This document shows positions 25,590 through 38,247 of a stretch of DNA of 64,000 bases, piece after piece. The notes under the pieces are model-generated. The model saw only the letters and a list, made by a program, of their open reading frames with translations. It searched no databases and had not been told where the DNA came from. The stretch is from an uncultured Chloroflexia bacterium (GTDB taxonomy: Bacteria; Chloroflexota; Limnocylindria; Limnocylindrales; CSP1-4), in the NCBI GenBank assembly GCA_963763775.1, contig CAVXPZ010000001.1, positions 416,001 through 480,000 of the forward strand. Reading direction: 5' to 3'. The translations under genes were made by a program, and so were the position numbers. How positions within the stretch are numbered: position 1 is the first letter of the stretch; the number at the start of each line of letters is the position of its first letter.

Positions 25590-27483
25590 GAGCGGCACCC
25601 GCGGCCGTCGCGGGCCGCGCAAGCCGCCGCGTCGCGACGGCACATTCAACTCATCCCAGGTGCAGGTCGCCGACCCGCGTGAGCGTGGCGCGATCGAGCT
25701 GCCCGGCACGATCACCGTCAAGGAGCTGGCCGACCTGCTGTCGGTCAATCCGGCCGACGTGATCCGCGAGCTCATCAAGAGCGGGATCTTCGCGACGATC
25801 AACCAGCTCATCGACCGCGACACCGCGTCGCTGGTCGCGAGCGAGCTCGGCTACGAGGTCGCGGAGACCACGCTGACCACCGTCGGGGTCACCCCGGACG
25901 GCGACGACGACGGCAAGGTGGCCGAGGCGACCAAGGAGGTCCTCTTCGAGGAGGACGATCCGTCGCTGCTCGTGCCACGCGCCCCGATCGTCACGGTCAT
26001 GGGCCACGTCGACCACGGCAAGACCAGCCTCCTCGATGCGATCCGGACGACCGAGGTGGCGGCCGGCGAGCGCGGCGGCATCACGCAGCACATCGGGGCG
26101 AGCGAGGTCACCCACGACGGGAAGCGCGTCGTGTTCCTCGACACGCCGGGCCACGAAGCGTTCACGGCGATGCGGGCCCGCGGGGCACGCGTGACGGACA
26201 TCGCGGTCGTGGTGGTAGCCGCCGACGACGGCGTCATGCCCCAGACGCTCGAGGCGATCAGCCACGCCAAGGCGGCCAAGGTGCCGATCATCATCGCGCT
26301 GAACAAGATCGACAAGCCGGACGCGAACGCCGACCGGGTCAAGACCGAGTTGACCGAGGCCGGGATCGTGGTGGAGGAGTACGGCGGCGACGTGCCGCTG
26401 GTGCCGGTCTCCGCGAAGACCCGGCTCGGCCTCGACGAGTTGATCGAGATGATCCTCCTCGTCGCGGACCTCCAGGAGCTCAAGGCGAACCCGAAGCGTT
26501 CGGCGATCGGCACGATCGTGGAAGCGCAGCTCGACAAGGGCCGCGGTCCCGTCGCGACGGCACTCGTCCAGACCGGCACGCTGAAGGTCGGCGACATCAT
26601 CGTCGTCGGCGAGACGTTCGGGCGCGTCCGCGCGCTCGAGAACGACCTCGGCAAGCGCGTCACGAAGGCCGGTCCCTCGAGCGCCGTGGTGATCCTCGGC
26701 CTCGCGGACGTCCCCGAGGCGGGTGACATCCTGCGCGTCGTCGGCGACGAGAAGGAAGCCCGGACGCTGGTCGAGTCCCGCAAGGCCGAGCACGCCGCCC
26801 GCGCCGGGGAGGGGAGTGGCCGCGCCACCCTCGAGGACCTCTACCGCCAGATCCAGGCCGGACAGGCGAAGGAGCTGCGGGTCATCCTCAAGGCCGACGT
26901 GTCCGGCTCGCTCGGCGCCATCACGCACGCACTCGAGCAGCTGGACCAGGAAGAGATCCGGGTCAACGTCCTGCTCGAGGGCGCCGGCGACATCACCGAC
27001 AACGACATCATGCTCGCGGCGGCATCGAATGCCATCGTCGTGGGCTTCAACACGAAGATCACCGACACCGCGCGGCGGTCCGCCGAGGCCGAGGGCGTCG
27101 ACGTCCGCCTCTACGACATCATCTACAAGCTGACCGACGACATCGAGGCGGCCCTCAAGGGCCTGCTCGAGCCGGTGGTCGTGGAGGTCGTGGAGGGTCG
27201 CGCGGAGGTCCGCCAGATCTTCCGCGTCGGCAAGAGCACGGTCATCGCCGGTTGCTACGTCACCGACGGGCGGATCGTCCGCGGCGGCGCGCGCGTCTGG
27301 CGTGGCGGGAAGATCGTCGCGACCGACAAGATCGAGTCGCTCCGCCGCTTCCGTGACGACGTCCGTGAGGTCGCCACCAACTACGAGTGCGGCATCGGCC
27401 TGGCCGATTACCACGACCTCGTCGAGGGCGACATCATCGAGTGCTTCACCTCGCAGACCGTCAGCCGGGCCATTGCCGGCTGA
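25576..27483 (+). CDS. infB: Translation initiation factor IF-2
   Basis: [37 protein letters not shown]. Confidence 0.98.
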
Positions 27484-27656: not shown

Positions 27657-28178
27657 ATGAGTCAACGCACCGACCGGGTCGATGAGTTGCTGCGTCAGGA
27701 GATCACCGCGATCGTGGCGCGGGACGTGGCCGACCCGCGCATCGGGTTCGTCACGATCACGAGCGTCGAGACGACGCCGGACCTGCGGCACGCCAAGGTC
27801 TGGGTGAGCGTCATCGGCCAGCCGGCGGAACGCGACGCCACGGTGGCCGCGCTCGGCCGGGCCATGCCGTTCGTCCGGCACGAGCTTGGGACACGGCTCC
27901 GGCTGAAGCGGATCCCCGACCTGCACGTGCGGCTCGACGATACCGCCGAGCGTGGCACGCGCGTGCTCCAGTTGCTCAACGAGCTCGAGGACGGGGCCGT
28001 ACCCGACGGCGACGTGCCGGTCGTCGAGGCGCTGCCGACCCCAGTGGCGCGGCTGCCGCACGAGGGCGACCTCCCGGACGAGCCGACGCCGGCCGCCCCG
28101 CCGCCCACCCCAGGGCGGCGCCGACGACGGCCGTACCATCCCAAGCCGACGACACAACACCCGCCGAAGCGGCGATGA
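27657..28178 (+). CDS. rbfA: Ribosome-binding factor A
   Basis: MSQRTDRVDELLRQEI, DPRIGFVTIT.V..TPDLRHAKVWVS, LRLKRIPDL. Confidence 0.96.
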   Translation: MSQRTDRVDELLRQEITAIVARDVADPRIGFVTITSVETTPDLRHAKVWVSVIGQPAERDATVAALGRAMPFVRHELGTRLRLKRIPDLHVRLDDTAERGTRVLQLLNELEDGAVPDGDVPVVEALPTPVARLPHEGDLPDEPTPAAPPPTPGRRRRRPYHPKPTTQHPPKRR

Positions 28179-29195
28179 CCGTCGACCTCGCCCCGTACCT
28201 CGATGCGGTGCCCCTCGTCGTCGTCGAGCGGCTGCGTGGCGCTCGGAACGTGCTGGCCGTGGGTCACGAGAACCCGGACGCGGACACGCTCGGAGCATCG
28301 CTCGCGGTCGCCCGCCTCGTGGCTGCGCACGGCGGTCGGGCCGATGTCGTGACCTCCGACTCGCCGCCGCCGCTGTACGACTTCCTGCCGGCGGTCGCCC
28401 GAGTCCGGACGGATCCCGATCCGGCCGCCGGGTACGACCTGATCGTCATCTCCGATTGTGGCTCGCTCGACCGCGTGGGCGCCGTGGGGAGCCGCCACGC
28501 GTCCCTGTTCGCCTCGGTGCCGACGGTCGTGATCGACCACCATGCCTCGAACGGCGGGACGGGCGAGGCGCCACTGGATCGACGCCCGCGCCGCGGCGAC
28601 GTGCGAGATGGTGACGCTCCTCGCCCTCAGCCTCGGCGTGCCACTCGATCTCGACGGCGGCGCGCTGGCGACCGAGCTGATGGCCGGGATCGTCATGGAC
28701 ACCGCGACCTTCGCCCACCCGAACGCGACGCCGCGAACGCTGGCGGTCTCGGCTGCGCTGGTCGAAGCCGGCGCCCCGCTCTCGGAGATCTCGAGACGCC
28801 TCTACCGGTCCAAGCCCGACGCGCAGCTCCGACTCTTCGGGCGGGTGCTGGACCGGCTCCAGACGGCGGCCGACGGCCGCATCGTGTATTCCACGCTGAC
28901 CGACGCCGACCTCGCGTCGACCGGGACCCTGCCGGCGCACTCCGAAGGGATCATCGACCTGCTCGCACAGGCCGAGACCGCCGAGGTCGCCATCCTGTTC
29001 AAGGAAGACGTGCGTGGGACCCGGTTGAGCGTCCGGACGAAGCCCGGCGGCGTCGACGCGACGGTCCTGACCGGGGCGTTCGGCGGCGGCGGCCACGCCC
29101 GTGCGTCGGGTGCGACGCTCTCGCTGCCTGTGGACGAGGCGACGGTGCCGGTCCTCGCCGAGGCGACGCGCCTCGTCGACGCCGTCCGCCGCTGA
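28175..29195 (+). CDS. nrnA: DHH/DHHA1 phosphoesterase (NrnA-like nanoRNase/pAp phosphatase; apparent frameshift ~28570)
   Basis: HENPDADTLG, IDHH, GIVMDTATF, FGGGGHARASG; rbfA-nrnA-truB synteny. Confidence 0.9.
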
Positions 29196-29197
29196 CG

Positions 29198-30151
29198 GTG
29201 GCGCGGTCCTCGCTCGGTCCGGGGCTTGACGGCATCCTCGTCGTCGCGAAGCCGGCCGGTCCGACCTCACACGACATCGTGGCGCTCGTGCGGCGACTGG
29301 CCGCCACCAAGCGCGTCGGGCACGGCGGGACCCTGGACCCGTTCGCCTCGGGCGTGCTGCCGATCTTCCTCGGACACGGCACGCGGGTCGTGGAGTACCA
29401 CCTCGGCGATCAGAAGGCCTACCGGGCGACCGTATGCTTCGGCGCCTCGTCGACCACGGACGATCTGGAAGGCGAGCTGACGCCGGCCGACGGCGCCGCG
29501 CCCGATCGAGCGACGGCCGAGGCCGCCCTGGCGGGCTTCCGCGGCGCGATCACGCAACGGCCACCCGCGTACAGCGCGATCAAGGTGGGCGGGCGGCGCG
29601 CCTACGCGATGGCCCGGGCGGGTGAGACGGTCGTCCTCGCCGAACGGCAGGTGACGATCGGATCGATCGAGGTCGCGTCCTGGGATGCCACGGACCCGGA
29701 CCGGCCGATCGCGGTCATCGATGTCGTGTGCTCCGCCGGGACGTACGTGCGGGCGATCGCCCGGGACCTCGGCGAACGAACCGGGAGTGCCGCCTACCTC
29801 GGGGCGCTGACCCGGACCGCGTCGGGCCCGTTCCGCATCGAGGACGCCGTCGACCTCGACGAGATCCGATCGGCCGCGGCCGACGGCCCCGCCGGGCTCC
29901 TCCCGTTCCTGCGCCCGATCGACGCCGGCCTCGAGGCCTTCCCCGATGTGCCCCTCACGGCCGAGGAGACCCAGGCGACGGCCCGCGGGCAGTTCATCGT
30001 CCCGGGGGCGGGCATCCCACCAGACGCCGAACGGTTCCGCCTCCGCGGACCGGACGGCGCCCTCGTGGCCATCGCGACCCGGCAGGGCAGCCGGCTGGCA
30101 CCCGACAAGGTCTTCGCGACGCCCGTCGTGCCGGTGGTGCCCGGCGCGTGA
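29198..30151 (+). CDS. truB: tRNA pseudouridine55 synthase
   Basis: KPAGPTSHD, VGHGGTLDPFASGVL, PPAYSAIKVGG, CSAGTYVRA. Confidence 0.97.
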   Translation: MARSSLGPGLDGILVVAKPAGPTSHDIVALVRRLAATKRVGHGGTLDPFASGVLPIFLGHGTRVVEYHLGDQKAYRATVCFGASSTTDDLEGELTPADGAAPDRATAEAALAGFRGAITQRPPAYSAIKVGGRRAYAMARAGETVVLAERQVTIGSIEVASWDATDPDRPIAVIDVVCSAGTYVRAIARDLGERTGSAAYLGALTRTASGPFRIEDAVDLDEIRSAAADGPAGLLPFLRPIDAGLEAFPDVPLTAEETQATARGQFIVPGAGIPPDAERFRLRGPDGALVAIATRQGSRLAPDKVFATPVVPVVPGA

Positions 30152-30907
30152 CGGATCGGATGCGCGTCGTGGGCGGCATCGATCGCCTGACCGCCGTCGA
30201 CGGACCGGCGTTCATCGTGGTCGGCGTCTTCGATGGCCTCCACCTCGGTCATCAGTACCTGCTGCGGCACCTCGTGGACGAAGCCGGCGGCGCGAGACGC
30301 CCGCCCGACCGTGGTCACGTTCGACCACCATCCGGACGAGGTCCTGACCGGGCACGCGCCGCCGCTGCTGATCGCGCCGGATGAGCGTCTCGAACGGCTC
30401 GCCGCGGCCGGTGTCGACGGGACCGTGGTCCAGCACTTCGACGCCGCCCTGCGCCAGACGCCGTACGACGCCTTCGTCGAGCGGATCCGCGCGCGGACGG
30501 CCGTCGCCGGGTTCCTGATGACGCCCGACGCGGCCTTCGGATTCGAGCGGCGCGGGACACCGGAGGCCCTCGCGAGTCTTGGCGAGAGGCACGGGTTCGA
30601 GGTCGTGGTGGTGCCACCGTTCGCCCTCGGCGGGCGCCCGGTGCGCAGCACGGACGTGCGCACCGCGATCACCTCGGGCGACCTCGCGCAGGCTCGGGCG
30701 CTGCTCGGCCGACCCGTGACCCTGCGCGGCTCCGTGGACGCGACAGGGCGATTGCGGTTCGAGCTGCCGATGGCATTGCCGCCCGACGGGACCTATCGGG
30801 CCTCGATCGCCGGCACCGTCACGGACATCGACATCCGCGACGGCGCGGTGCGGCTCGACGCCCCGCCGTCGAGCTCCCATGTCTCGCTCGAGTTGCTGGC
30901 GACCTAG
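30148..30907 (+). CDS. ribF: FAD synthetase (RibF family) with degenerate kinase domain (apparent frameshift ~30285)
   Basis: [38 protein letters not shown]; short C-terminus lacking the PTAN motif. Confidence 0.85.
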
Positions 30908-31631: not shown

Positions 31632-31901
31632 GTGCCGCTCGCGCGGGAAGAGAAGCAGGAGATCATCACCGGGTTTGCCACCAAGGAAGGTGACACCGGT
31701 TCCCCGGAAGTCCAGATCGCGCTCCTCACCGAGCGGATCAAGGAGCTGACCGGGCATCTTCGAAGCTTTCCCAAGGACAATCATTCGCGTCGCGGCCTCC
31801 TCAAGCTCGTCGGCCAGCGCCGCCGCCTTCTCGCCTACCTGATGAAGAAGGACAGCGCGCGCTACCGGGTCGTCATCGGACGACTCGGACTTCGCCGCTA
31901 G
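31632..31901 (+). CDS. rpsO: 30S ribosomal protein S15
   Basis: [33 protein letters not shown]; SD GGAGG. Confidence 0.98.
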
Positions 31902-31914
31902 CGACGCCGCTCCC

Positions 31915-31938
31915 GGACCCCGGGTATCCCCGGGGTCC
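31915..31938 (+). terminator. Hairpin in the rpsO-pnp intergenic region (terminator or processing site)
   Basis: GGACCCCGGG-TATC-CCCGGGGTCC. Confidence 0.55.
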
Positions 31939-32021
31939 TCTCGCGTCCGACGCTCATCGGCCCAGTCGGCCGGCCTGCCCGCAGGTCGAACCTCCTCCAC
32001 GGCCAAGGAGGAACAGCTCCC

Positions 32022-34604
32022 TTGTCTCAGACATTCGAGACGCAGATCGGTGGTCGCACGCTGACCATCGAGACCGGCCGGCTTGCACGCCTGGCCGGCG
32101 GGTCCGTCACCGTCCGCTACGGTGACACCCTGGTCCTCGGGACCGCCAACCGGTCCGATCCGCGACCGGGCCTCGACTTCTTCCCGCTCACCGTCGAGTT
32201 CGAGGAGCGCATGTACGCCGCGGGCAAGATCCCCGGCGGCTTCATCAAGCGCGAAGCCCGTGCGTCGGAGGCCGCCACCCTGGCCGCCCGCCTGACCGAC
32301 CGGCCGATCCGCCCGCTCTTCCCCGAGGGCTACAAGGACGATATCCAGCTCGTCATCACGGTCCTCTCGACCGACCAGGAGAACGAGCCCGACGTGCTCG
32401 GCACGACGGCCGCCTCGGCCGCGCTGAGCATCAGCGAGATCCCGTTCGGCGGCCCGGTGGGCGCCGTGCGCATCGGTCGCATCGGCGGCGAGTTCGTCGT
32501 CAACCCGACCTACAGCGAGCTCGCGGAGTCCGAGCTCGACCTCATCGTCTCGGGCACCCGGGACGCGATCATGATGGTCGAGGCCGGCGCCAAGCTGCTG
32601 CCCGAGGCCGTCATGGCCGAGGCGATCCTGTTCGGCCATCGCGCCCTGCAGCCGCTGATCGACATCCAGGAGGAGCTTCGCAAGGCCGTCGGCAAGGCGA
32701 AGATCACCCCGTTCCTGGAGGCCGGCACGGGCACCGTGCTCGACTTCGCCAAGCAGGCGGAGGCCGGTGGCGAGTTCGTGATCGTCGACGTCGAGACCAC
32801 GGGCACGGACCCGAAGATGGCCGACCTCGTCGAGATCGCCGCGGTCCGCGTCAAGGGCAACAAGATCGTCGACCGCTGGTCGACGCTCGTGAACCCGGGT
32901 CGTCCGATCATCGGCAACCAGATGCACGGCATCACGGACGCGGACGTCAAGAAGGCCCCCAAGCCGGCCGACGCCGCCAAGGACGCCCTCAAGTTCATCG
33001 GTGACGCCCCGGTCGTGGGCCACAGCGTCGGCTTCGACCTCGGCTTCCTGGAGGCCGCGCTCGGTGACGGCACCCGCTTCGAGCAGGGCCGCTATCTCGA
33101 CACGCTGACGATCGCCCGAGAGGGGTACCCGGACCTCGAGAACTACAAGCTCGCGACCCTGTCGAACTTCTTCGGCATCGAGCTCGCGCAGTCGCACCGT
33201 GCCGGACCGGACGCCGAGGCGACCGCGAACCTGCTCATCTGGTTCGCGAACGACCTCCCGGGGCGCATCAAGACGCTTCGCGAGTCCATCGCGGACGCGG
33301 TCCGGGCCAATCGGACGGGCGGCGACTCCAAGGGCCTGCTCGAGGCCGCTCGCCGCGAGGCGCGCGTCTCGAAGGGCCTGTACAACCTGATCCACAAGAA
33401 GACGTGCCGCGCCCTGGCCCTCGACGAGGGCATCCGGATGGACGGTCGCGGGACCACGGAGCTTCGGCCGATCTCGGTCGAGGTCGGGTTCCTGCCGCGA
33501 GCCCACGGCTCGGGCATCTTCACCCGCGGCGAGACGCAGGTGCTCACGATCGCGACCCTCGGCTCGTCCTCGGACGTGCAGCGGATCGACACGATCAGCC
33601 CGAAGACCGAGAAGCGCTACATCCACCACTACAACTTCCCGCCCTACTCCACGGGCGAGAACAAGCCGATGCGCGGACCCAGCCGCCGCGACATCGGGCA
33701 CGGCAACCTCGCCGAGCGGGCGCTGATCCCGGTCCTCCCCGACCATGACGAGTTCCCGTACGTCATCCGGCTCGTGTCGGAGTGCATGTCGTCCAATGGC
33801 TCGACGTCGATGGCGTCGACCTGCGGCTCGACCCTGGCGCTCATGGACGCCGGCGTGCCGATCAAGGCGCCGGTCGCCGGTGCGGCCATGGGCCTCATCA
33901 GCGAGCCGGACGGCCGGTTCGTCGTCCTCACCGACATCCTCGGCAAGGAGGACTCGGTCGGCGACATGGACTTCAAGGTGACCGGTACGCGGGACGGGAT
34001 CACCGCCCTGCAGATGGACATCAAGGTCAAGGGCATCAACGAGGCCATCATCCGGAACGGGCTCGAGCAGGCGCTCGCCGCCCGCCTGGAGATCCTCGAC
34101 AAGATGACCGAGGTCCTGCCGGACGCCCGCTCCGAGATGAGCGACTTCGCGCCGCGCATCATCACGATCAAGATCAACCCCGAGAAGATCCGCGAGATCA
34201 TCGGCAAGGGCGGATCGATGATCCGCAAGATCCAGGAAGAGACCAGCACCGAGATCAACGTCGAGGACGACGGCACCGTGGAGATCGCGGCCGTCTCCGG
34301 CGAGAACTCGCGCAAGGCCATCCAGTGGATCGAGAGCCTCACCCGCGAGGTCGAGGTCGGCGCCCTCTACATGGGCAAGGTCACCCGGATCATGGGCTTC
34401 GGCGCCTTCGTCGAGATCCTGCCGGGCAAGGAAGGCCTGGTCCGTATCGGCGAGCTCGCCGACTACCACGTCCCGACCGTCGAGGACGTCGTGTCCGTCG
34501 GCGACGAGATCATGGTGGTCGTGATCGAGGTCGACCGTCAGGGTCGCGTCAACCTCTCGCGCAAGGCCGCCATGCAGCGGCATCTGGCCAAGGATCCCGC
34601 GTAG
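32022..34604 (+). CDS. pnp: Polyribonucleotide nucleotidyltransferase with inserted DEDDh exonuclease domain (860 aa)
   Basis: RNase PH1 ([30 protein letters not shown]), RNase PH2 ([32 protein letters not shown]), KH (IIGKGG), S1; extra ~160 aa DVETTG...HSVGFD...HRAGPD. Confidence 0.97.
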
Positions 34605-34710: not shown

Positions 34711-35820
34711 ATGCCCCGGATGAACCGAGCACCTCTCACCGTGGCCGTCGTGGGCGCCACCGGCGTCGTGGGGCGGACCATGATCGCCGTCCTGCACGAA
34801 CGCGGATTCCCCATGGCGGAGCTTCGGCTTCTTGCGTCGGGCCGGTCCGCGGGTCGGACCGTGTCGGTCGAGGGACGGACGCTCGAGATCGGCGAGGCGA
34901 CGCCCGAGGCGTTCGACGGCGTCGACATCGCGCTGTTCTCGGCCGGCGCGGAGATCTCCACGCGGCTCGCGCCCGAGGCGGCGAAACGCGGCGCGACGGT
35001 CATCGACAACTCCTCGGCGTGGCGCATGGATCCGCACGTGCCGCTGGTGGTCTCGCAGGTCAATCCGGACGACCTCGAGGGCCACGAGGGCATCATCGCC
35101 AACCCGAACTGCTCGACGATGCAGATGGCCCCCGTGCTGATGGCCCTGCGCGACAGCGTCGGCCTGGAGCGGGTCGTCGTCGACACGTACCAATCGGTGT
35201 CCGGCACCGGGGCCGACGCCCTCGCGGAGCTCGAGGGCCAGATCCGCGCGCACGTGGCCGGCGAGCCGAAACGGGCCGAGGTCTACCCGCACCCCATCGC
35301 GTTCAACGCGCTCCCGGAGATCGACGTGTTCCTCCCCAACGGGTACACGAAGGAGGAGTGGAAGGTCGTCACCGAGAACCGCAAGATCCTCGGTCTGCCC
35401 GAGCTGCGCATCTCGTGTACCGCGGTCCGCGTCCCGGTCTTCGTCAGCCATTCCGAGGCGATCCACGTCGAGACCCGCGAGCCCATCACGCCGGAGCGCG
35501 CCCGACGCCTGTTCACGAGCGTGCCCGGCGTCGTCGTCCAGGACGACCCCGAGACGCACGACTACCCGCTGGCCACCGATGCCGCGGGCCATGACGAGAT
35601 CTACGTCGGCCGCGTCCGGCAGGACATCTCGATGGCCGGCGACCGTGGCCTCGCGTTCTGGGTCGTCTCGGACAACCTGCGCAAGGGCGCAGCGACCAAC
35701 GCCGTCGAGCTCGCGGAGATCCTCCTCGAGCGACGCTGGGTGGAGCACGCCTCGGCCCGCGGCGCCCAGCCGTACCGGGCCCTCGGCAGCGAGGTGACGG
35801 CCGGCGGGGGAACGGCGTGA
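34711..35820 (+). CDS. asd: Aspartate-semialdehyde dehydrogenase
   Basis: [45 protein letters not shown]. Confidence 0.97.
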
Positions 35821-36566
35821 CCGACGCCGAGCGCCGCGCGGCGCTCGAGGTGATCGCGGCGGAGGTCCGGGACTGCACGCGATGCCGCCTCCATACCGGC
35901 CGTACCCGCGCCGTCCCTGGTGAGGGGAACCCGTCGACCGAGGTCGTGTTCGTCGGCGAAGGCCCCGGGTTCAACGAGGACAAGCAGGGCCGGCCGTTCG
36001 TCGGCCGCGCGGGCGACCTCCTCGTCAAGCTCCTCGGATCGATCGGGTGGCGTCGCGAGGACGTGTTCATCACGAACGTCGTGAAGTGCCGGCCGCCCGA
36101 CAACCGCGACCCGGAGCCCGACGAGATCGCGGCCTGCGCGCCCTACCTGACCCGACAGCTCGAGGTCCTCGACCCGGCGGTCGTCGTGACCCTCGGCCGG
36201 TTCTCGATGGCGCGGTTCATGCCCGGCGTCCGCATCTCCCAGGCGCACGGCACCGTGCGGCCGGCCGACCCGGCGACGGGCGCCCGCGACGCCCTCGTGC
36301 TGGCCATGTACCACCCCGCGGCGGCGTTGCGGACCCCCGCCATCGAGCGCGAGAGCTTCGCCGACGCCGCCACCATCCCGAGTGTCCTGCTGGACGCGCG
36401 AGCCCGCCGGGCGGACCATTCGTCTCGACCGGTCCCGGCGACCGCCGCGACGAAGACGCCGCAGACGGCCGACGAGACCACCATCGACCGCCCTGCCCCA
36501 TCCGCGCCGCCCGTCCTCGAGCCCGTGGCGGCGCCCTCCGACACCGACCAACTCACCCTCTTCTAG
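35817..36566 (+). CDS. Uracil-DNA glycosylase family 4 ([4Fe-4S])
   Basis: [37 protein letters not shown]; C-terminal QLTLF. Confidence 0.94.
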
Positions 36567-36573
36567 GACCCAT

Positions 36574-38247
36574 ATGCCCACACCCAGTCCCGATCAGCCG
36601 CTCCGCATCATCCCGCTCGGCGGGGTGGGGGAGATCGGCAAGAACATGTACGTCTTCGAGTACCGCGACGAGATCGTCGTCATCGACTGCGGCCTCATGT
36701 TCCCGGACGAGGAGATGTTCGGCATCGACCTCGTCATCCCCGATGTCACCTATCTCAAGGAGAACCGGGCGAAGGTCAAGGCCTTCCTCATCACCCACGC
36801 CCACGAGGACCACGTCGGCGGCCTGCCGTACGTGCTGCCCGAGTTCCCCGGCGTCCCGGTCTATGCCTCGACGCTGGCCCGCGGGCTGCTCGGCAACAAG
36901 ATCAAGGAGCACAAGCTCCACAACAACCCGGTCCTGCCCCTCGACCCGGGCGACGAGCTCCAGATCGGCTCGTTCACGGTCATCCCGTTCCGCGTCGGCC
37001 ACTCGATCCCCGACGCGATGGGGATCGCCCTTCGGACGCCGGTCGGGACCATCGTCCACACGGGCGACTTCAAGTTCGACCACACCCCGGTCGACGGCAA
37101 GCTGTCGGACTTCGCGATCCTCGCGAAGCTCGGCGCCGAGGGCGTCCTGTGCCTGCTGTCGGACTCGACCAATGCCGAGAAGCCCGGGTACACGCCGTCC
37201 GAGCGGACCGTCGGCGAGGCCTTCCGCGAGATCATGGAGCCCCTCGAGGGCCGGGTGATCGTCGCGACCTTCGCGAGCAACATCGCCCGCATCCAGCAGG
37301 TCCTCGACGCCGCCGGCGACATGGGCCGGAGCGTGGCGGTCATCGGCCGCTCGATGGAGCAGAACTTCCGGATCGCGACGGACCTCGGGTACCTCAAGTA
37401 CGACGCGTCGATGATCGTCGCGAAGGACAAGATCAAGGACCACCCGGACGCCAAGCTCGTCATCGCGACGACGGGCGCGCAGGGCGAGCCGATGGCGGGG
37501 CTCGCGCGGATGGCCAACCGCGACCATCGCTTCGTCGAGATCCAGCCCGGCGACACGGTCATCGTCAGCGCGAGCCCGATCCCCGGCAACGAGGAGTACG
37601 TCTCGCGCACGATCGACAACCTGTTCAAGGCCGGGGCGAACGTCTACTACCACACCGTCAAGCGGGCGCACGTGTCGGGCCACGCCAGCCAGGAAGAGCT
37701 CAAGCTGATGCTCGGCCTGACCCGGCCGACCCACTTCATCCCGATGCACGGCGAGTTCCGCATGCAGGTGCAGCACGGCCGTCTCGCCATCGAGACCGGC
37801 GTGGCGCCCGAGAACGTCTTCATCATCGAGAACGGCACGCCGATCGAGCTGTATGCCGATGGATCCGCACGGCGGGGGAGCCCGGTCACCGCCGGGTATG
37901 TCTTCGTCGACGGGCTCTCGGTCGGCGAGGTCGGCGAGGTCGTCCTGCGCGACCGCCGGTCGCTGGCGAACGACGGGATGTTCATGATCGTGGTCACCGT
38001 GGACAAGCAGACGGGCCAGATCATCGGCCGCCCGGAGATCGTCACGCGCGGCTTCGTCCACCTCAACGAGCGCGACCCGATCATGGAGGAGGCCGTGGAC
38101 CGCGTCCTCGCGGCCATCTCGACCCCGGGCGACCACATCAGCGAAGTCGGGCTGCTGAAGCAGCAGATCAAGGACGGGGTCTCGCGGTACCTGTACGAGC
38201 AGACGAAGCGACGGCCGATGGTCTTCCCGGTCGTGGTGGAGGTCTAG
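36574..38247 (+). CDS. rnj: Ribonuclease J
   Basis: PLGGVGEIGKNM, THAHEDHVGG, HSIPD, HTGDFK, HVSGH. Confidence 0.97.
   Translation: MPTPSPDQPLRIIPLGGVGEIGKNMYVFEYRDEIVVIDCGLMFPDEEMFGIDLVIPDVTYLKENRAKVKAFLITHAHEDHVGGLPYVLPEFPGVPVYASTLARGLLGNKIKEHKLHNNPVLPLDPGDELQIGSFTVIPFRVGHSIPDAMGIALRTPVGTIVHTGDFKFDHTPVDGKLSDFAILAKLGAEGVLCLLSDSTNAEKPGYTPSERTVGEAFREIMEPLEGRVIVATFASNIARIQQVLDAAGDMGRSVAVIGRSMEQNFRIATDLGYLKYDASMIVAKDKIKDHPDAKLVIATTGAQGEPMAGLARMANRDHRFVEIQPGDTVIVSASPIPGNEEYVSRTIDNLFKAGANVYYHTVKRAHVSGHASQEELKLMLGLTRPTHFIPMHGEFRMQVQHGRLAIETGVAPENVFIIENGTPIELYADGSARRGSPVTAGYVFVDGLSVGEVGEVVLRDRRSLANDGMFMIVVTVDKQTGQIIGRPEIVTRGFVHLNERDPIMEEAVDRVLAAISTPGDHISEVGLLKQQIKDGVSRYLYEQTKRRPMVFPVVVEV

Follow-up and report, generated by a model that had tools for sequence, protein, structure and literature searches.

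The gene pnp, encoding polynucleotide phosphorylase (PNPase), lies on the forward strand at 32022..34604 of the window, the whole stretch of 64,000 nucleotides that was analysed. It adjoins rpsO (ribosomal protein S15; 31632..31901, forward strand; Pfam Ribosomal_S15, E 7.9e-35) on the upstream side, starts with TTG and codes for a protein of 860 aa, which was identified as a PNPase with an inserted DEDDh domain from the ORF list, the translation, Pfam and NCBIfam. The reading frame contains no internal stop and no frameshift, in agreement with the first-pass annotation, which had described an intact in-frame pnp of this length at the rpsO-pnp locus. The intergenic region (31899..32021, forward strand) carries a strong GC-rich hairpin just past the rpsO stop; folded as RNA (31899-32030) it reaches -58.3 kcal/mol with a z of -2.58, and one of 200 shuffles was equally stable. 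No Rfam match at the gathering score was found between positions 27000 and 39000, including this hairpin. Of the 22 related loci examined, 21 have an S15 homologue upstream in the same orientation, and the remaining locus is cut by a contig end. The GC content through the insert (0.67-0.71) is the same as that of the flanks. This pnp is the only PNPase gene of its genome, that of a soil bacterium of the Chloroflexota; apart from its own two RNase_PH matches the genome has one more, in an RNase PH-like gene on contig 3. Apparent single-base frame breaks are seen in nrnA and ribF, both of which lie less than 4 kb upstream of pnp.

The protein begins with the first RNase PH domain (PH1) and its RNase_PH_C part (aa 144-208) at 32052..32645, where PF01138 matches the window positions 32052-32444, corresponding to 448052-448444 of the contig. 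It continues with the N-terminal part of the all-helical domain and the linker into the insert (32649..32777; helices aa 210-223 and 237-247 in the AF2 model), the inserted DEDDh 3'-5' exonuclease domain (32778..33236; aa 253-405) and the C-terminal part of the helical domain (33237..33431; aa 406-470). The second RNase PH domain (PH2) with the phosphorolytic site (33459..33860; PF01138 at aa 480-613), the KH domain (34161..34334; aa 714-771; PF00013, KH_1, E 8.5e-11) and the S1 domain (34350..34565; aa 777-848; PF00575, E 3.6e-18) complete the protein, all on the forward strand. RNase_PH was detected in two stretches (Pfam, E 2e-54), and RNase_PH_C likewise in two. RNase_T (PF00929) covers aa 253-405 with its entire profile (1-164 of 164, E 9.5e-26, 91.7 bits against a cut-off of 24); a whole-genome profile search put this match at the same place in pnp, and the NCBIfam model TIGR00573 scored 77 against a cut-off of 71.5. 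The PNPase model TIGR03591 (938 bits, cut-off 525) matched in two stretches, the second aligning aa 441-849 with profile positions 280-688, so that the PNPase profile is interrupted exactly at the exonuclease. Pfam thereby bears out the order RNase PH-(helices)-DEDDh-(helices)-RNase PH-KH-S1 and, with the full-length PF00929 match, the complete DnaQ/PolC-type DEDDh domain between the PH domains that had been claimed from the letters. The insert measures about 155 aa, or about 160 aa with linkers, and sits between helices of the linker domain. The region between the PH domains comprises 256-261 aa in the fusion versus 96 aa in the sister family f4. Fusion PNPases are conserved in length at 858-878 aa; the insert-free proteins of f4 have 736-737 aa, which fits the usual length of roughly 700 aa assumed at first.

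The catalytic motifs are present in the translation ([37 protein letters not shown], [10 protein letters not shown]). The five DEDDh residues, D256 and E258 (ExoI), D339 (ExoII) and H392 and D397 (ExoIII), were confirmed with their original numbering in translation and alignment, and are invariant in 19/19 aligned insert-bearing sequences, with the region diverging to about 40% identity. R555, R556, H560, S594, S596, D644, D650 and K652 of PH2, which we take to correspond to the catalytic residues of E. coli PNPase, are invariant across 104 aligned PNPases. This alignment and the Pfam matches agree with the earlier statement that the phosphorolytic residues, KH and S1 are intact. As judged from their residues, both catalytic centres, the predicted phosphorolytic PH2 site and the metal-binding residues of the DEDDh domain, are intact. 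The remainder of the helical domain had been called diverged. PF03726 found no match at E 0.01 or better. The domain appears to be kept and split by the insert and not merely diverged; in the AF2 model, helices at aa 210-223, 237-247, about 409-431, 436-447 and 451-469 flank the insert. In the C-terminal helical part R428, R444, R445, K459 and R463 are conserved within the fusion clade.

The AF2 model of the whole protein reached a pLDDT of 92.5 and a pTM of 0.86, and pLDDT in the C-terminal helical part is mostly above 90. In this model the last helix of the DEDDh domain, which carries ExoIII, runs unbroken into the helical domain as one helix of 38 residues (aa 394-431), followed by the helices 436-447 and 451-469. 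The DEDDh domain modelled in isolation (pLDDT 87.7) shows the RNase H-like alpha/beta fold of the DnaQ type, with Foldseek matches to DinG, PolC, DnaQ and epsilon at E 1e-11 to 1e-8. The rmsd amounts to about 2.4-2.9 A over about 160-170 columns for PolC, DnaQ and epsilon, and to 7.6-8.0 A over 202 columns for DinG. A complex prediction with three chains (PH1; PH2-KH-S1; helical part plus DEDDh) gave a median score of 0.36, compared to 0.68 for the control, and no contacts.

By sequence the PolC exonuclease domain is the best match of the insert (PolC-type exonuclease of T. maritima, 2p1j, 1.8e-35; PolC, 9qpc, 1.6e-33; about 31-32% identity in structural alignments), followed by S. aureus DinG (8zef, 1.4e-30) and by DnaQ and epsilon at about 1e-19. 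In PolC, too, the DEDDh domain is an internal insertion in a larger enzyme, but the host protein is a polymerase and not a ribonuclease. RNase T was matched with E 7e-8 to 4e-10 and Orn with E about 1e-4 over only about 27-29 N-terminal profile positions. The structural ranking starts with DinG, PolC, DnaQ, epsilon and ExoX, and RNase T and REXO2 come after these. RNase T is hence not the closest DEDDh relative, as it ranks below PolC, DinG and DnaQ by sequence and structure, and no full-length similarity to Orn/REXO2 was found. With H392 as its ExoIII residue the domain falls outside the DEDDy group of Rrp6 and RNase D, and the RNase D-type DEDDy profile PF01612 had no match in the same genome. 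The DEDDh domain of DinG (S. aureus, 8zef/9ii8; B. subtilis, PMC12525004; the 834-867-aa proteins of f4) belongs to the same branch as the insert. S. aureus DinG is the top structural match (Foldseek E 1e-11), and the exonuclease domain of the f4 DinG is 39-42% identical to the insert. In DinG, defined by the exonuclease together with DEAD_2 or DEAD plus Helicase_C_2, the exonuclease is N-terminal and joined to a helicase, whereas in the fusion it is internal and the helicase part is missing. As the protein has no helicase domain and its genome contains no match to PF13307 or to the f4 helicase, it is not a DinG.

To analyze the distribution of the architecture, 401 Chloroflexota genomes were sampled. 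Matches spanning the whole of aa 200-480 were found in 44 of them, namely the genome studied here and all members of the families f1 (23/23), f2 (4/4) and f3 (16/16), with identities from 82% down to 41%. All other listed matches in this sample cover the exonuclease part only (about query positions 50-215). The best 120 of 1414 protein hits, which come from several sources, all combine PF00929 and PF01138, and of 559 related stretches retrieved from species-representative genomes, the 80 top-ranked are almost all titled as Chloroflexota or as Candidatus Limnocylindrales/Limnocylindria MAGs. The same architecture was thus found in other genomes, as the first-pass annotation had proposed to check, and clade-wide in f1-f3. 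Among the best 150 PNPase representatives (50% clusters) the insert was found only in P0122 and in fragments. Besides P0122, no RNase_T was found in 9 of the 11 listed PNPases of at least 850 aa; P0246 and P0226, two long PNPases outside the RNase_T scan, show only two matched stretches each.

In a PNPase tree calculated with the insert columns removed, the 20 rows with an insert, out of 104, make up a single clade with a support of 100, and its sister group is f4, whose PNPases lack the insert. A DEDDh-domain tree, obtained by a quick tree search, unites 19 inserts in one group (SH-aLRT 96), and its split between f3 and f1+f2 follows taxonomy. The fusion is inherited in three Limnocylindria families and goes back to a single ancient gain in their ancestor, followed by vertical inheritance. 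In the domain tree the Orn-like domains of genus g220 are separated from every other row by a branch of length 4.07, and the inserts fall outside a 32-row group (SH-aLRT 85) that contains all DinG-like domains. The insert also carries 'HGI', presumably typical of epsilon-like domains, at the position taken by 'TGI' in the DinG and PolC domains. A tree constrained to join the inserts with the Limnocylindria DinG domains was worse by 12.1 lnL and was not rejected (AU p 0.247). The best domain tree therefore lends no support to DinG as the donor of the insert, but by the AU test the domain may still have come from there.

The DEDDh insert is under purifying selection, with a dN/dS of 0.11-0.33 in seven computable pairs; the PH cores have values of 0.05-0.16 and the flanking helices 0.18-0.70, with the N-terminal helical segment showing the highest within the gene (0.24-0.70). 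Both this and the invariance of the five catalytic residues in all 19 sequences speak against an insert that serves without catalysis, as a binding platform or as a lid over the PH2 site; dead DEDD domains usually lose these residues. Such a role would be compatible with the tolerance of the PNPase helical domain for length variation of other kinds (at the same site a helical segment is repeated in one representative, and a low-complexity linker is present in another), and we consider it very improbable.

An assembly chimera or annotation artefact could have been suspected from the apparent single-base frame breaks in nrnA and ribF, up to 4 kb upstream in this assembly. However, the same junctions recur in the 44 genomes of the 401-genome sample, in all 80 of the top-ranked loci, which stem from different MAG projects, and in the top 120 protein clusters. 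The gene has an open reading frame, and its length stays within 858-878 aa. In addition, a metagenome contig of another study bridges the 3' junction. The chimera explanation is refuted by these independent assemblies, and its probability is negligible. The read evidence consists of short Logan contigs of about 130-300 nt, and among those listed none covers the gene from end to end or reaches across the two junctions together. The boundary between DEDDh domain and helix is crossed by one DNA contig (X2 record 28, 33201-33351, 2 differences). The piece from an RNA library nearest the 5' boundary (X19 record 20, 32658-32797) extends only 20 letters beyond it and was therefore not counted as bridging. 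Of the check suggested at first, reads across both junctions, the 3' junction is thus covered by one such contig. Contigs from two metatranscriptome libraries with at least 85% likeness cover all 30 bins, which proves neither transcription nor the identity of the organism.

The insert and the DinG exonuclease-helicase show complementary distributions in the class. In f4 the PNPase is of the normal kind, about 737 aa long, and the DEDDh domain resides on a protein of 834-867 aa with RNase_T, DEAD and Helicase_C_2. Among 121 genomes of the class, Helicase_C_2 (PF13307) was detected in f4 (38/39) and f83 (1/1), but only once each in f1 (1/35) and f3 (1/40) and not in f2 (0/5). The f1 exception is a different protein in a 2041-aa frame, the f3 exception a 107-aa fragment at a contig edge. 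Neither PF13307 nor the f4 helicase part has a match in the genome studied here, and the PNPase insert is its only PF00929 match. RNase II/R (RNB, PF00773) was found neither in this genome nor in any of the 121 class genomes. An NrnA-like gene is present in f1 (35/35), f2 (5/5), f3 (39/40) and f4 (35/39), with open frames of about 280-580 aa in the relatives. The nrnA frame neighbouring pnp is broken in the assembly studied here, and as the gene is intact in relatives this break looks private to that assembly. In genus g220 no NrnA was found (0/4); all four genomes contain an Orn-like DEDDh in a short frame. The genome also encodes two DnaE-type polymerases with full PHP domains and without a PolC-type insertion. 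PHP-domain proofreading occurs in such bacteria, and with both polymerases so equipped a role of the insert as replication proofreader is unlikely.

With the predicted catalytic residues of both nucleases present, a nuclease of two chemistries is the natural reading. RNA reaches the PH2 site of PNPase through the KH/S1 face and the central channel. The fusion would still be a trimeric PNPase that degrades RNA with phosphate, and each protomer would additionally bear a Mg2+/Mn2+-dependent hydrolytic 3'-5' exonuclease head, which would be rigidly mounted on the helical domain via the continuous helix. Given the route of the RNA, the head most likely acts on separate 3' ends and not on the end held in PH2. 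We propose, with a confidence just short of even, that the fusion is a bifunctional 3'-5' exonuclease in which a DinG-type activity has been re-housed on PNPase. The hydrolytic head probably took over the exonuclease role of DinG on ssDNA 3' tails and on RNA in hybrids. Two observations prompt this proposal: the DinG exonuclease-helicase was not found in just that lineage which acquired the insert, and the insert is nearest to PolC, DinG and DnaQ. B. subtilis DinG is reported to digest ssDNA in the 3'-5' direction as well as the RNA strand of hybrids, to remove R-loops and, with Mn2+, to degrade ssRNA (PMC12525004). PNPase of B. subtilis and E. coli is reported to work on ssDNA ends during DNA repair (PMC2709576, PMC3241651, PMC5379764). 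The link to DinG consists of one gain and one loss, perhaps on the same branch, and so makes no statistical association. Against it stand the position of the inserts outside the DinG-containing tree group and the 'HGI' motif. Sequence does not reveal the substrate choice of DEDDh enzymes, and DinG-like substrates are a proposal in this sense.

PNPase, the fusion partner, works mainly on RNA, and the usual logic of gene fusions would favour a role in RNA metabolism. The heads might then assist RNA decay in an 'exosome-like' PNPase by removing 3' ends at which the enzyme stalls (structured or modified ends, or low phosphate), by trimming precursors of stable RNAs or by taking RNA past the ring. 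A hydrolytic 3' exoribonuclease would thereby be joined to the only processive one of the lineage, RNase II/R having not been found. We regard this as possible but doubtful. It fits with the partner being the only PNPase of the cell, fused domains usually sharing a pathway, with the lack of an RNB domain in this genome and in all 121 class genomes and of an RNase D-type DEDDy domain in this genome, and with RNase T and REXO2 being detectable as structural relatives. A DEDDh of the same branch can also cut RNA, since B. subtilis DinG is reported to act on RNA in hybrids and, with Mn2+, on ssRNA (PMC12525004). On the other hand, the nearest relatives of the insert are DNA- or hybrid-directed exonucleases and not RNase T or Orn. 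In a class without recognisable RNase II/R an extra hydrolytic RNA exonuclease could be useful, but f4 manages without one; as the lack is class-wide and includes f4 with its plain PNPase, it fails to explain an insert in f1-f3 only. A built-in nanoRNase that degrades limit products of 2-5 nt, as Orn does, is improbable. PNPase leaves short end products and the nrnA frame is broken in this assembly, and the first-pass annotation had suggested that the domain could finish such products. However, the slot is already filled by an NrnA-like gene across the class or, where none was found (g220), by an Orn-like DEDDh in 4/4 genomes, so that the gene distribution gives no support to such a role. Moreover, Orn matches the insert at only about 1e-4 over about 27-29 profile positions, the insert being nearest to PolC, DinG and DnaQ, and the suggestion is weakened accordingly.

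For the DinG-type activity proposed here, one can picture a PNPase trimer with three DinG-like heads, uniting RNA decay and genome maintenance in one polypeptide. In it the KH/S1 face and the ring would find RNA, and the heads would remove substrates beyond the reach of phosphorolysis, for instance the hybridised RNA of R-loops or, at breaks and stalled forks, ssDNA 3' tails; in a variant, RNA would thread through the active PH ring to the heads, as in the exosome with Rrp44. In this detail the scheme is speculative and rather unlikely. The exosome with Rrp6 or Rrp44 is a functional analogy, combining an RNase PH-type ring with a hydrolytic 3'-5' exonuclease. The first-pass annotation had drawn this analogy loosely and had placed three hydrolytic heads under the PH ring; both ideas would depend on the geometry of the trimer. 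In the fusion, in contrast, the ring should itself be phosphorolytically active, and the hydrolytic unit is covalently inserted and of the DEDDh type instead of DEDDy (Rrp6) or RNB (Rrp44). Cas2-DEDDh fusions (8fy9; 6e-19 by sequence, also a Foldseek match) likewise place a DnaQ-like DEDDh domain, which trims 3' ends, on a scaffold handling nucleic acids, but they are terminal fusions with an unrelated partner and pathway, whereas the PNPase fusion is an insertion.

PNPase is among the best-studied ribonucleases and, to our knowledge, its five-part architecture has been treated as constant from bacteria to human mitochondria. Canonical PNPases (E. coli 7ogl/3gcm, C. crescentus 4aim/4am3, S. 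antibioticus 1e3p, M. tuberculosis 8wxf) share PH1, PH2, KH and S1, apparently the helical linker, and the rpsO-pnp order with the fusion and match it with Foldseek E-values down to 1e-75 at 32-41% identity, but none of the listed solved structures (at most 730 residues) has a DEDDh insert. The architecture had been thought uncharacterised, and no description was found in the literature searched, which excluded subscription journals. A widespread uncultured lineage of Chloroflexota has long borne, under selection, a second nuclease of different chemistry inside its PNPase, and the insertion also shows the helical domain to be permissive, which is of use for engineering PNPase fusions. Should the head prove active, the protein would be a naturally occurring 3' exonuclease with both phosphorolytic and hydrolytic activity. 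One could then examine in it how the active site of PNPase and the peripheral helical domain communicate, whether a dedicated hydrolytic site can strengthen the reported role of PNPase in DNA repair, and how cells make up for the loss of DinG. If the DinG-type reading is true, a ribonuclease-coupled nuclease would replace the helicase-coupled DinG throughout a class of bacteria that are abundant in soil and freshwater.

The pnp gene (32022-34604, forward strand) is read in a single open frame of 860 codons that begins at TTG. Pfam profiles recover from it the order RNase_PH and RNase_PH_C, RNase_T (PF00929), RNase_PH and RNase_PH_C, KH and S1, i.e., the PH-DEDDh-PH-KH-S1 arrangement predicted by the first-pass annotation. 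The RNase_T match at aa 253-405 covers profile positions 1-164 of 164 (E 9.5e-26; 91.7 bits, cut-off 24). The PNPase equivalog of NCBIfam, TIGR03591, matches in two stretches with a score of 938 bits; in the second, aa 441-849 fall on profile positions 280-688, and the PNPase profile is therefore broken within the helical linker. All exonuclease motifs quoted in the first-pass annotation are present in the translation with correct residue numbers, and its statement that the gene carries no frameshift holds, the frame being intact and agreeing with relatives over its full length. This is the sole PNPase of the genome, where RNase_PH matches are this pnp (twice) and one RNase PH-like gene. The genome comprises 3.30 Mb in 4 contigs and is 87% complete; gene absences from it are to be read as 'not found in those searched'.

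A search of protein collections with aa 215-470 returned 1414 matches, the best 120 of which share 73-95% identity, all carry PF00929 together with PF01138, are mostly 860-863 aa long and derive from NCBI, ENA, JGI and Logan assemblies. When a sample of 401 Chloroflexota genomes was searched with aa 200-480, full-span matches were obtained in 44, namely the own genome, 23/23 of its family (f1), 4/4 of a family of the same order (f2) and 16/16 of a family of another order of the class (f3), with identity dropping from 82% to 41%. The other matches listed in this search cover the exonuclease part only, in frames of ~930-1060 aa, ~600-790 aa or shorter. Species-representative genomes yielded 559 related stretches; the best 80 span all or nearly all of the query at 66-87% identity and are titled Chloroflexota, 'uncultured Chloroflexia' or Candidatus Limnocylindrales/Limnocylindria MAG, with a few short contigs binned under other names. 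In 30 complete insert-bearing genes the length is 858-878 aa. An assembly chimera is ruled out by the identical architecture in 44 of the 401 genomes and in assemblies of several sources, and it is practically certain that the fusion is real. As for its clade distribution, a point raised in the first-pass annotation, the architecture was found in families f1, f2 and f3.

The insert-free PNPase of a sister family (f4, two genomes) has 736-737 aa and aligns with query residues 8-242 and 459-851 and with none between. The region between the two RNase PH domains measures 96 aa in f4 against 256-261 aa in the fusion, a net gain of ~160 aa that corresponds to one DEDDh domain plus short linkers. The helical domain is retained but split. 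In a FastTree phylogeny of PNPases (104 rows, 612 columns, insert columns taken out) all 20 proteins with the insert fall into a single clade (support 100), whose sister group is the f4 PNPases. A quick IQ-TREE search on 59 DEDDh domains likewise places 19 inserts in one group (SH-aLRT 96), dividing into f3 versus f1 plus f2. On these phylogenies, the insert is judged to have been gained once and inherited since.

An AlphaFold2 model from the 104-row alignment reached a mean pLDDT of 92.5 and a pTM of 0.86, and shows in the insert the beta-alpha order expected of a DEDDh domain. The insert is flanked by helices 210-223 and 237-247 on its N-terminal side and by helices 436-447 and 451-469 on its C-terminal side. 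H392 and D397 lie on the ExoIII helix, which runs unbroken to residue 431 and enters the helical domain; the model suggests a DEDDh domain stiffly mounted on the helical domain. Foldseek with the whole model against the PDB returned PNPases only, of at most 730 residues, and none of the solved PNPases listed has the insert.

The DEDDh residues D256, E258, D339, H392 and D397 are invariant in 19/19 aligned insert-bearing sequences, five catalytic residues unchanged across an f1-f3 divergence that leaves this region only ~40% identical. Eight sequence pairs were compared by the Nei-Gojobori method, and dN/dS was 0.11-0.33 for the DEDDh part (7 pairs, the eighth being saturated), 0.05-0.16 for the PH domains, 0.03-0.24 for KH-S1 and 0.18-0.70 for the helices flanking the insert; the DEDDh part is thus under purifying selection. 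In the second RNase PH domain R555, R556, H560, S594, S596, D644, D650 and K652 are invariant in 104 PNPases, in line with the intact phosphorolytic site described in the first-pass annotation. With both sites invariant, both nucleases look catalytically competent from their sequences.

The gene lies in a conserved setting, rpsO (S15, 31632-31901) being directly upstream of pnp in 21/22 related loci inspected, while the remaining locus ends at a contig edge. The 120-nt rpsO-pnp spacer (31899-32021, forward strand) folds into a strong hairpin (fold z -2.58), a perfect, GC-rich 10-bp stem (GGACCCCGGG/CCCGGGGUCC) just past the rpsO stop, for which no Rfam match was found. In E. coli the rpsO-pnp hairpin is a processing site; here it could be a terminator, an attenuator or a processing site. 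On the 3' side, pnp is followed by asd, a family-4-type uracil-DNA glycosylase and RNase J, the latter two 1.2-1.8 kb downstream. Their longest candidate frames on the forward strand (UDG-superfamily glycosylase, 35817-36566; RNase J with beta-CASP and RNase_J_C domains, 36382-38247) overlap by ~185 nt, and the RNase J start is therefore probably further downstream, near 36553. The upstream order is nrnA-truB-ribF-rpsO-pnp. The NrnA-like DHH/DHHA1 gene (28175-29195, forward strand) changes frame near 28570-28600, so that its DHH and DHHA1 parts are read in successive frames. In most relatives the C-terminal part belongs to an open frame of ~280-580 aa; this break therefore appears private to the assembly, the explanation being either an indel error or very recent pseudogenisation. 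Also on the forward strand, ribF (FAD synthetase, 29728-30907) shows an apparent frame change near 30285-30300, its N-terminal part being read in a different frame from the remainder, which matches Pfam FAD_syn (profile 35-157). Two apparent single-base frame breaks less than 2 kb apart point to indel errors in the assembly, which is nearly closed at 4 contigs, and such errors may also account for its estimated completeness of 87%.

In a profile search against PDB sequences the insert matched best the T. maritima PolC-type exonuclease domain (2p1j, E 1.8e-35), PolC (9qpc, 1.6e-33) and S. aureus DinG (8zef, 1.4e-30), followed by DnaQ (8h18, 2.7e-19), Cas2-DEDDh (8fy9, 6e-19), epsilon (1j53, 1e-18), exonuclease X (4fzx, 3e-12) and RNase T (4e-10 to 7e-8). 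Oligoribonuclease came last, with an E-value of about 1e-4 and some 27-29 profile positions aligned. Structurally, a model of aa 215-470 (pLDDT 87.7) ranked DinG, PolC, DnaQ, epsilon, ExoX and Cas2-DEDDh before RNase T, ExoI and REXO2, and the best NCBIfam domain-level matches were the actinobacterial 'DEDD exonuclease domain-containing protein' PRK07883, DinG and PolC. These matches place the insert in the branch of the superfamily that is directed at DNA or hybrids.

For the class Limnocylindria 121 genomes were surveyed, 95 of them at least 90% complete. RNB (RNase II/R) was matched in 0/121, the own genome included, and in 11/14 control genomes; the class may rely on PNPase as its sole processive 3' exoribonuclease. 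The insert is the only PF00929 match in the own genome, which has no PF01612 (DEDDy) match. Both of its DnaE-type polymerases have full PHP domains, and the missing dnaQ therefore needs no special explanation. PF00929 was matched in f1 35/35, f2 5/5, f3 39/40, f4 37/39 and a further family (f83) 1/1. In f1-f3 the top match lies in a PNPase-sized frame, most genomes having exactly one, whereas in f4 it lies in a ~890-1000-aa frame of a DinG-type exo-helicase (RNase_T, DEAD, Helicase_C_2). Helicase_C_2 (PF13307) was matched in f4 38/39, f83 1/1, f1 1/35 (a different protein with a 2041-aa frame), f2 0/5 and f3 1/40 (a 107-aa contig-edge fragment), and not in the own genome. These tallies take in four unpublished f4 and two unpublished f3 genomes, without which the pattern is the same and f4 PF13307 becomes 34/35. 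The lineage with DEDDh in PNPase is therefore the lineage without detected DinG, a complementarity that counts as one evolutionary event. Most f2 genomes (1.0-1.4 Mb; G133, G309, G357, G459) have a second, stand-alone DEDDh gene in a frame of ~206-246 aa, on a very long branch adjoining DinG-like exonuclease domains in the domain tree.

The complementary distribution prompted the idea that the DinG exonuclease domain itself moved into PNPase, but the best domain tree shows no such transfer. There, DinG-like domains, those of the class included, group together (SH-aLRT 93) within a 32-row group (85) that excludes the inserts, and the inserts read 'HGI' where DinG and PolC domains read 'TGI'. 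A constraint joining inserts and Limnocylindria DinG domains was 12.1 log-likelihood units worse and was not rejected (AU p 0.247).

Source annotations name the protein 'polyribonucleotide nucleotidyltransferase', 'exonuclease domain-containing protein' or 'DNA polymerase III epsilon subunit family exonuclease'. In open full texts (subscription journals and supplements being outside the scope) no description or test of a PNPase carrying a DEDD domain as an insertion was found, in keeping with the first-pass annotation, which knew of no characterised example. The fusion is a new combination of two well-known parts and no new kind of enzyme. Other long PNPase representatives vary in non-catalytic parts, and none has a second enzyme domain. 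The linker position that holds the insert here is occupied in P0158 by a repeated, K/E-rich helical segment of ~160 aa and in P0195 by a linker rich in Ser/Gly/Ala; P0195 also shows three stretches of KH, and P0132 and P0137 each show three of S1.

A bifunctional PNPase fusion is well supported by sequence, and its DEDDh head is quite probably an active hydrolytic exonuclease; a non-catalytic insert, which conflicts with the invariant catalytic residues, is very improbable. A nanoRNase is distinctly unlikely, since similarity to Orn is marginal and the NrnA/Orn distribution gives no support, which also weakens the finishing of short products proposed in the first-pass annotation. NrnA-like nanoRNase was found in f1 35/35, f2 5/5, f3 39/40 and f4 35/39, and the four genomes of the f4 genus g220 in which it was not found (G401, G409, G412, G417) all carry a short DEDDh gene in a frame of 193-245 aa, with an Orn-like 'DLEMTGLDP' start in the two whose domains were retrieved (G401, G417). 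Such NrnA/Orn alternation is already known and serves here as a positive control for inferring functions from distributions.

The main rival reading is that the head assists PNPase on RNA, in a class where RNase II/R was not found. This is a lesser but real possibility that follows the logic of the fusion partner; f4 equally lacks RNase II/R, yet has no insert. We tentatively favour a DinG-exonuclease-like head that would act, tethered to PNPase, on ssDNA 3' tails and on the RNA of RNA:DNA hybrids, because the nearest relatives of the insert are PolC, DinG and DnaQ-type domains and DinG was not found in the insert-bearing lineage. The published activities also argue for it: B. subtilis DinG degrades ssDNA 3'-5' and the RNA strand of hybrids and removes R-loops (PMC12525004), and PNPase has a reported role in repair, at ssDNA ends (PMC2709576, PMC3241651, PMC5379764). 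In the f1-f3 lineage, a DinG-like exonuclease activity would now be housed on PNPase.
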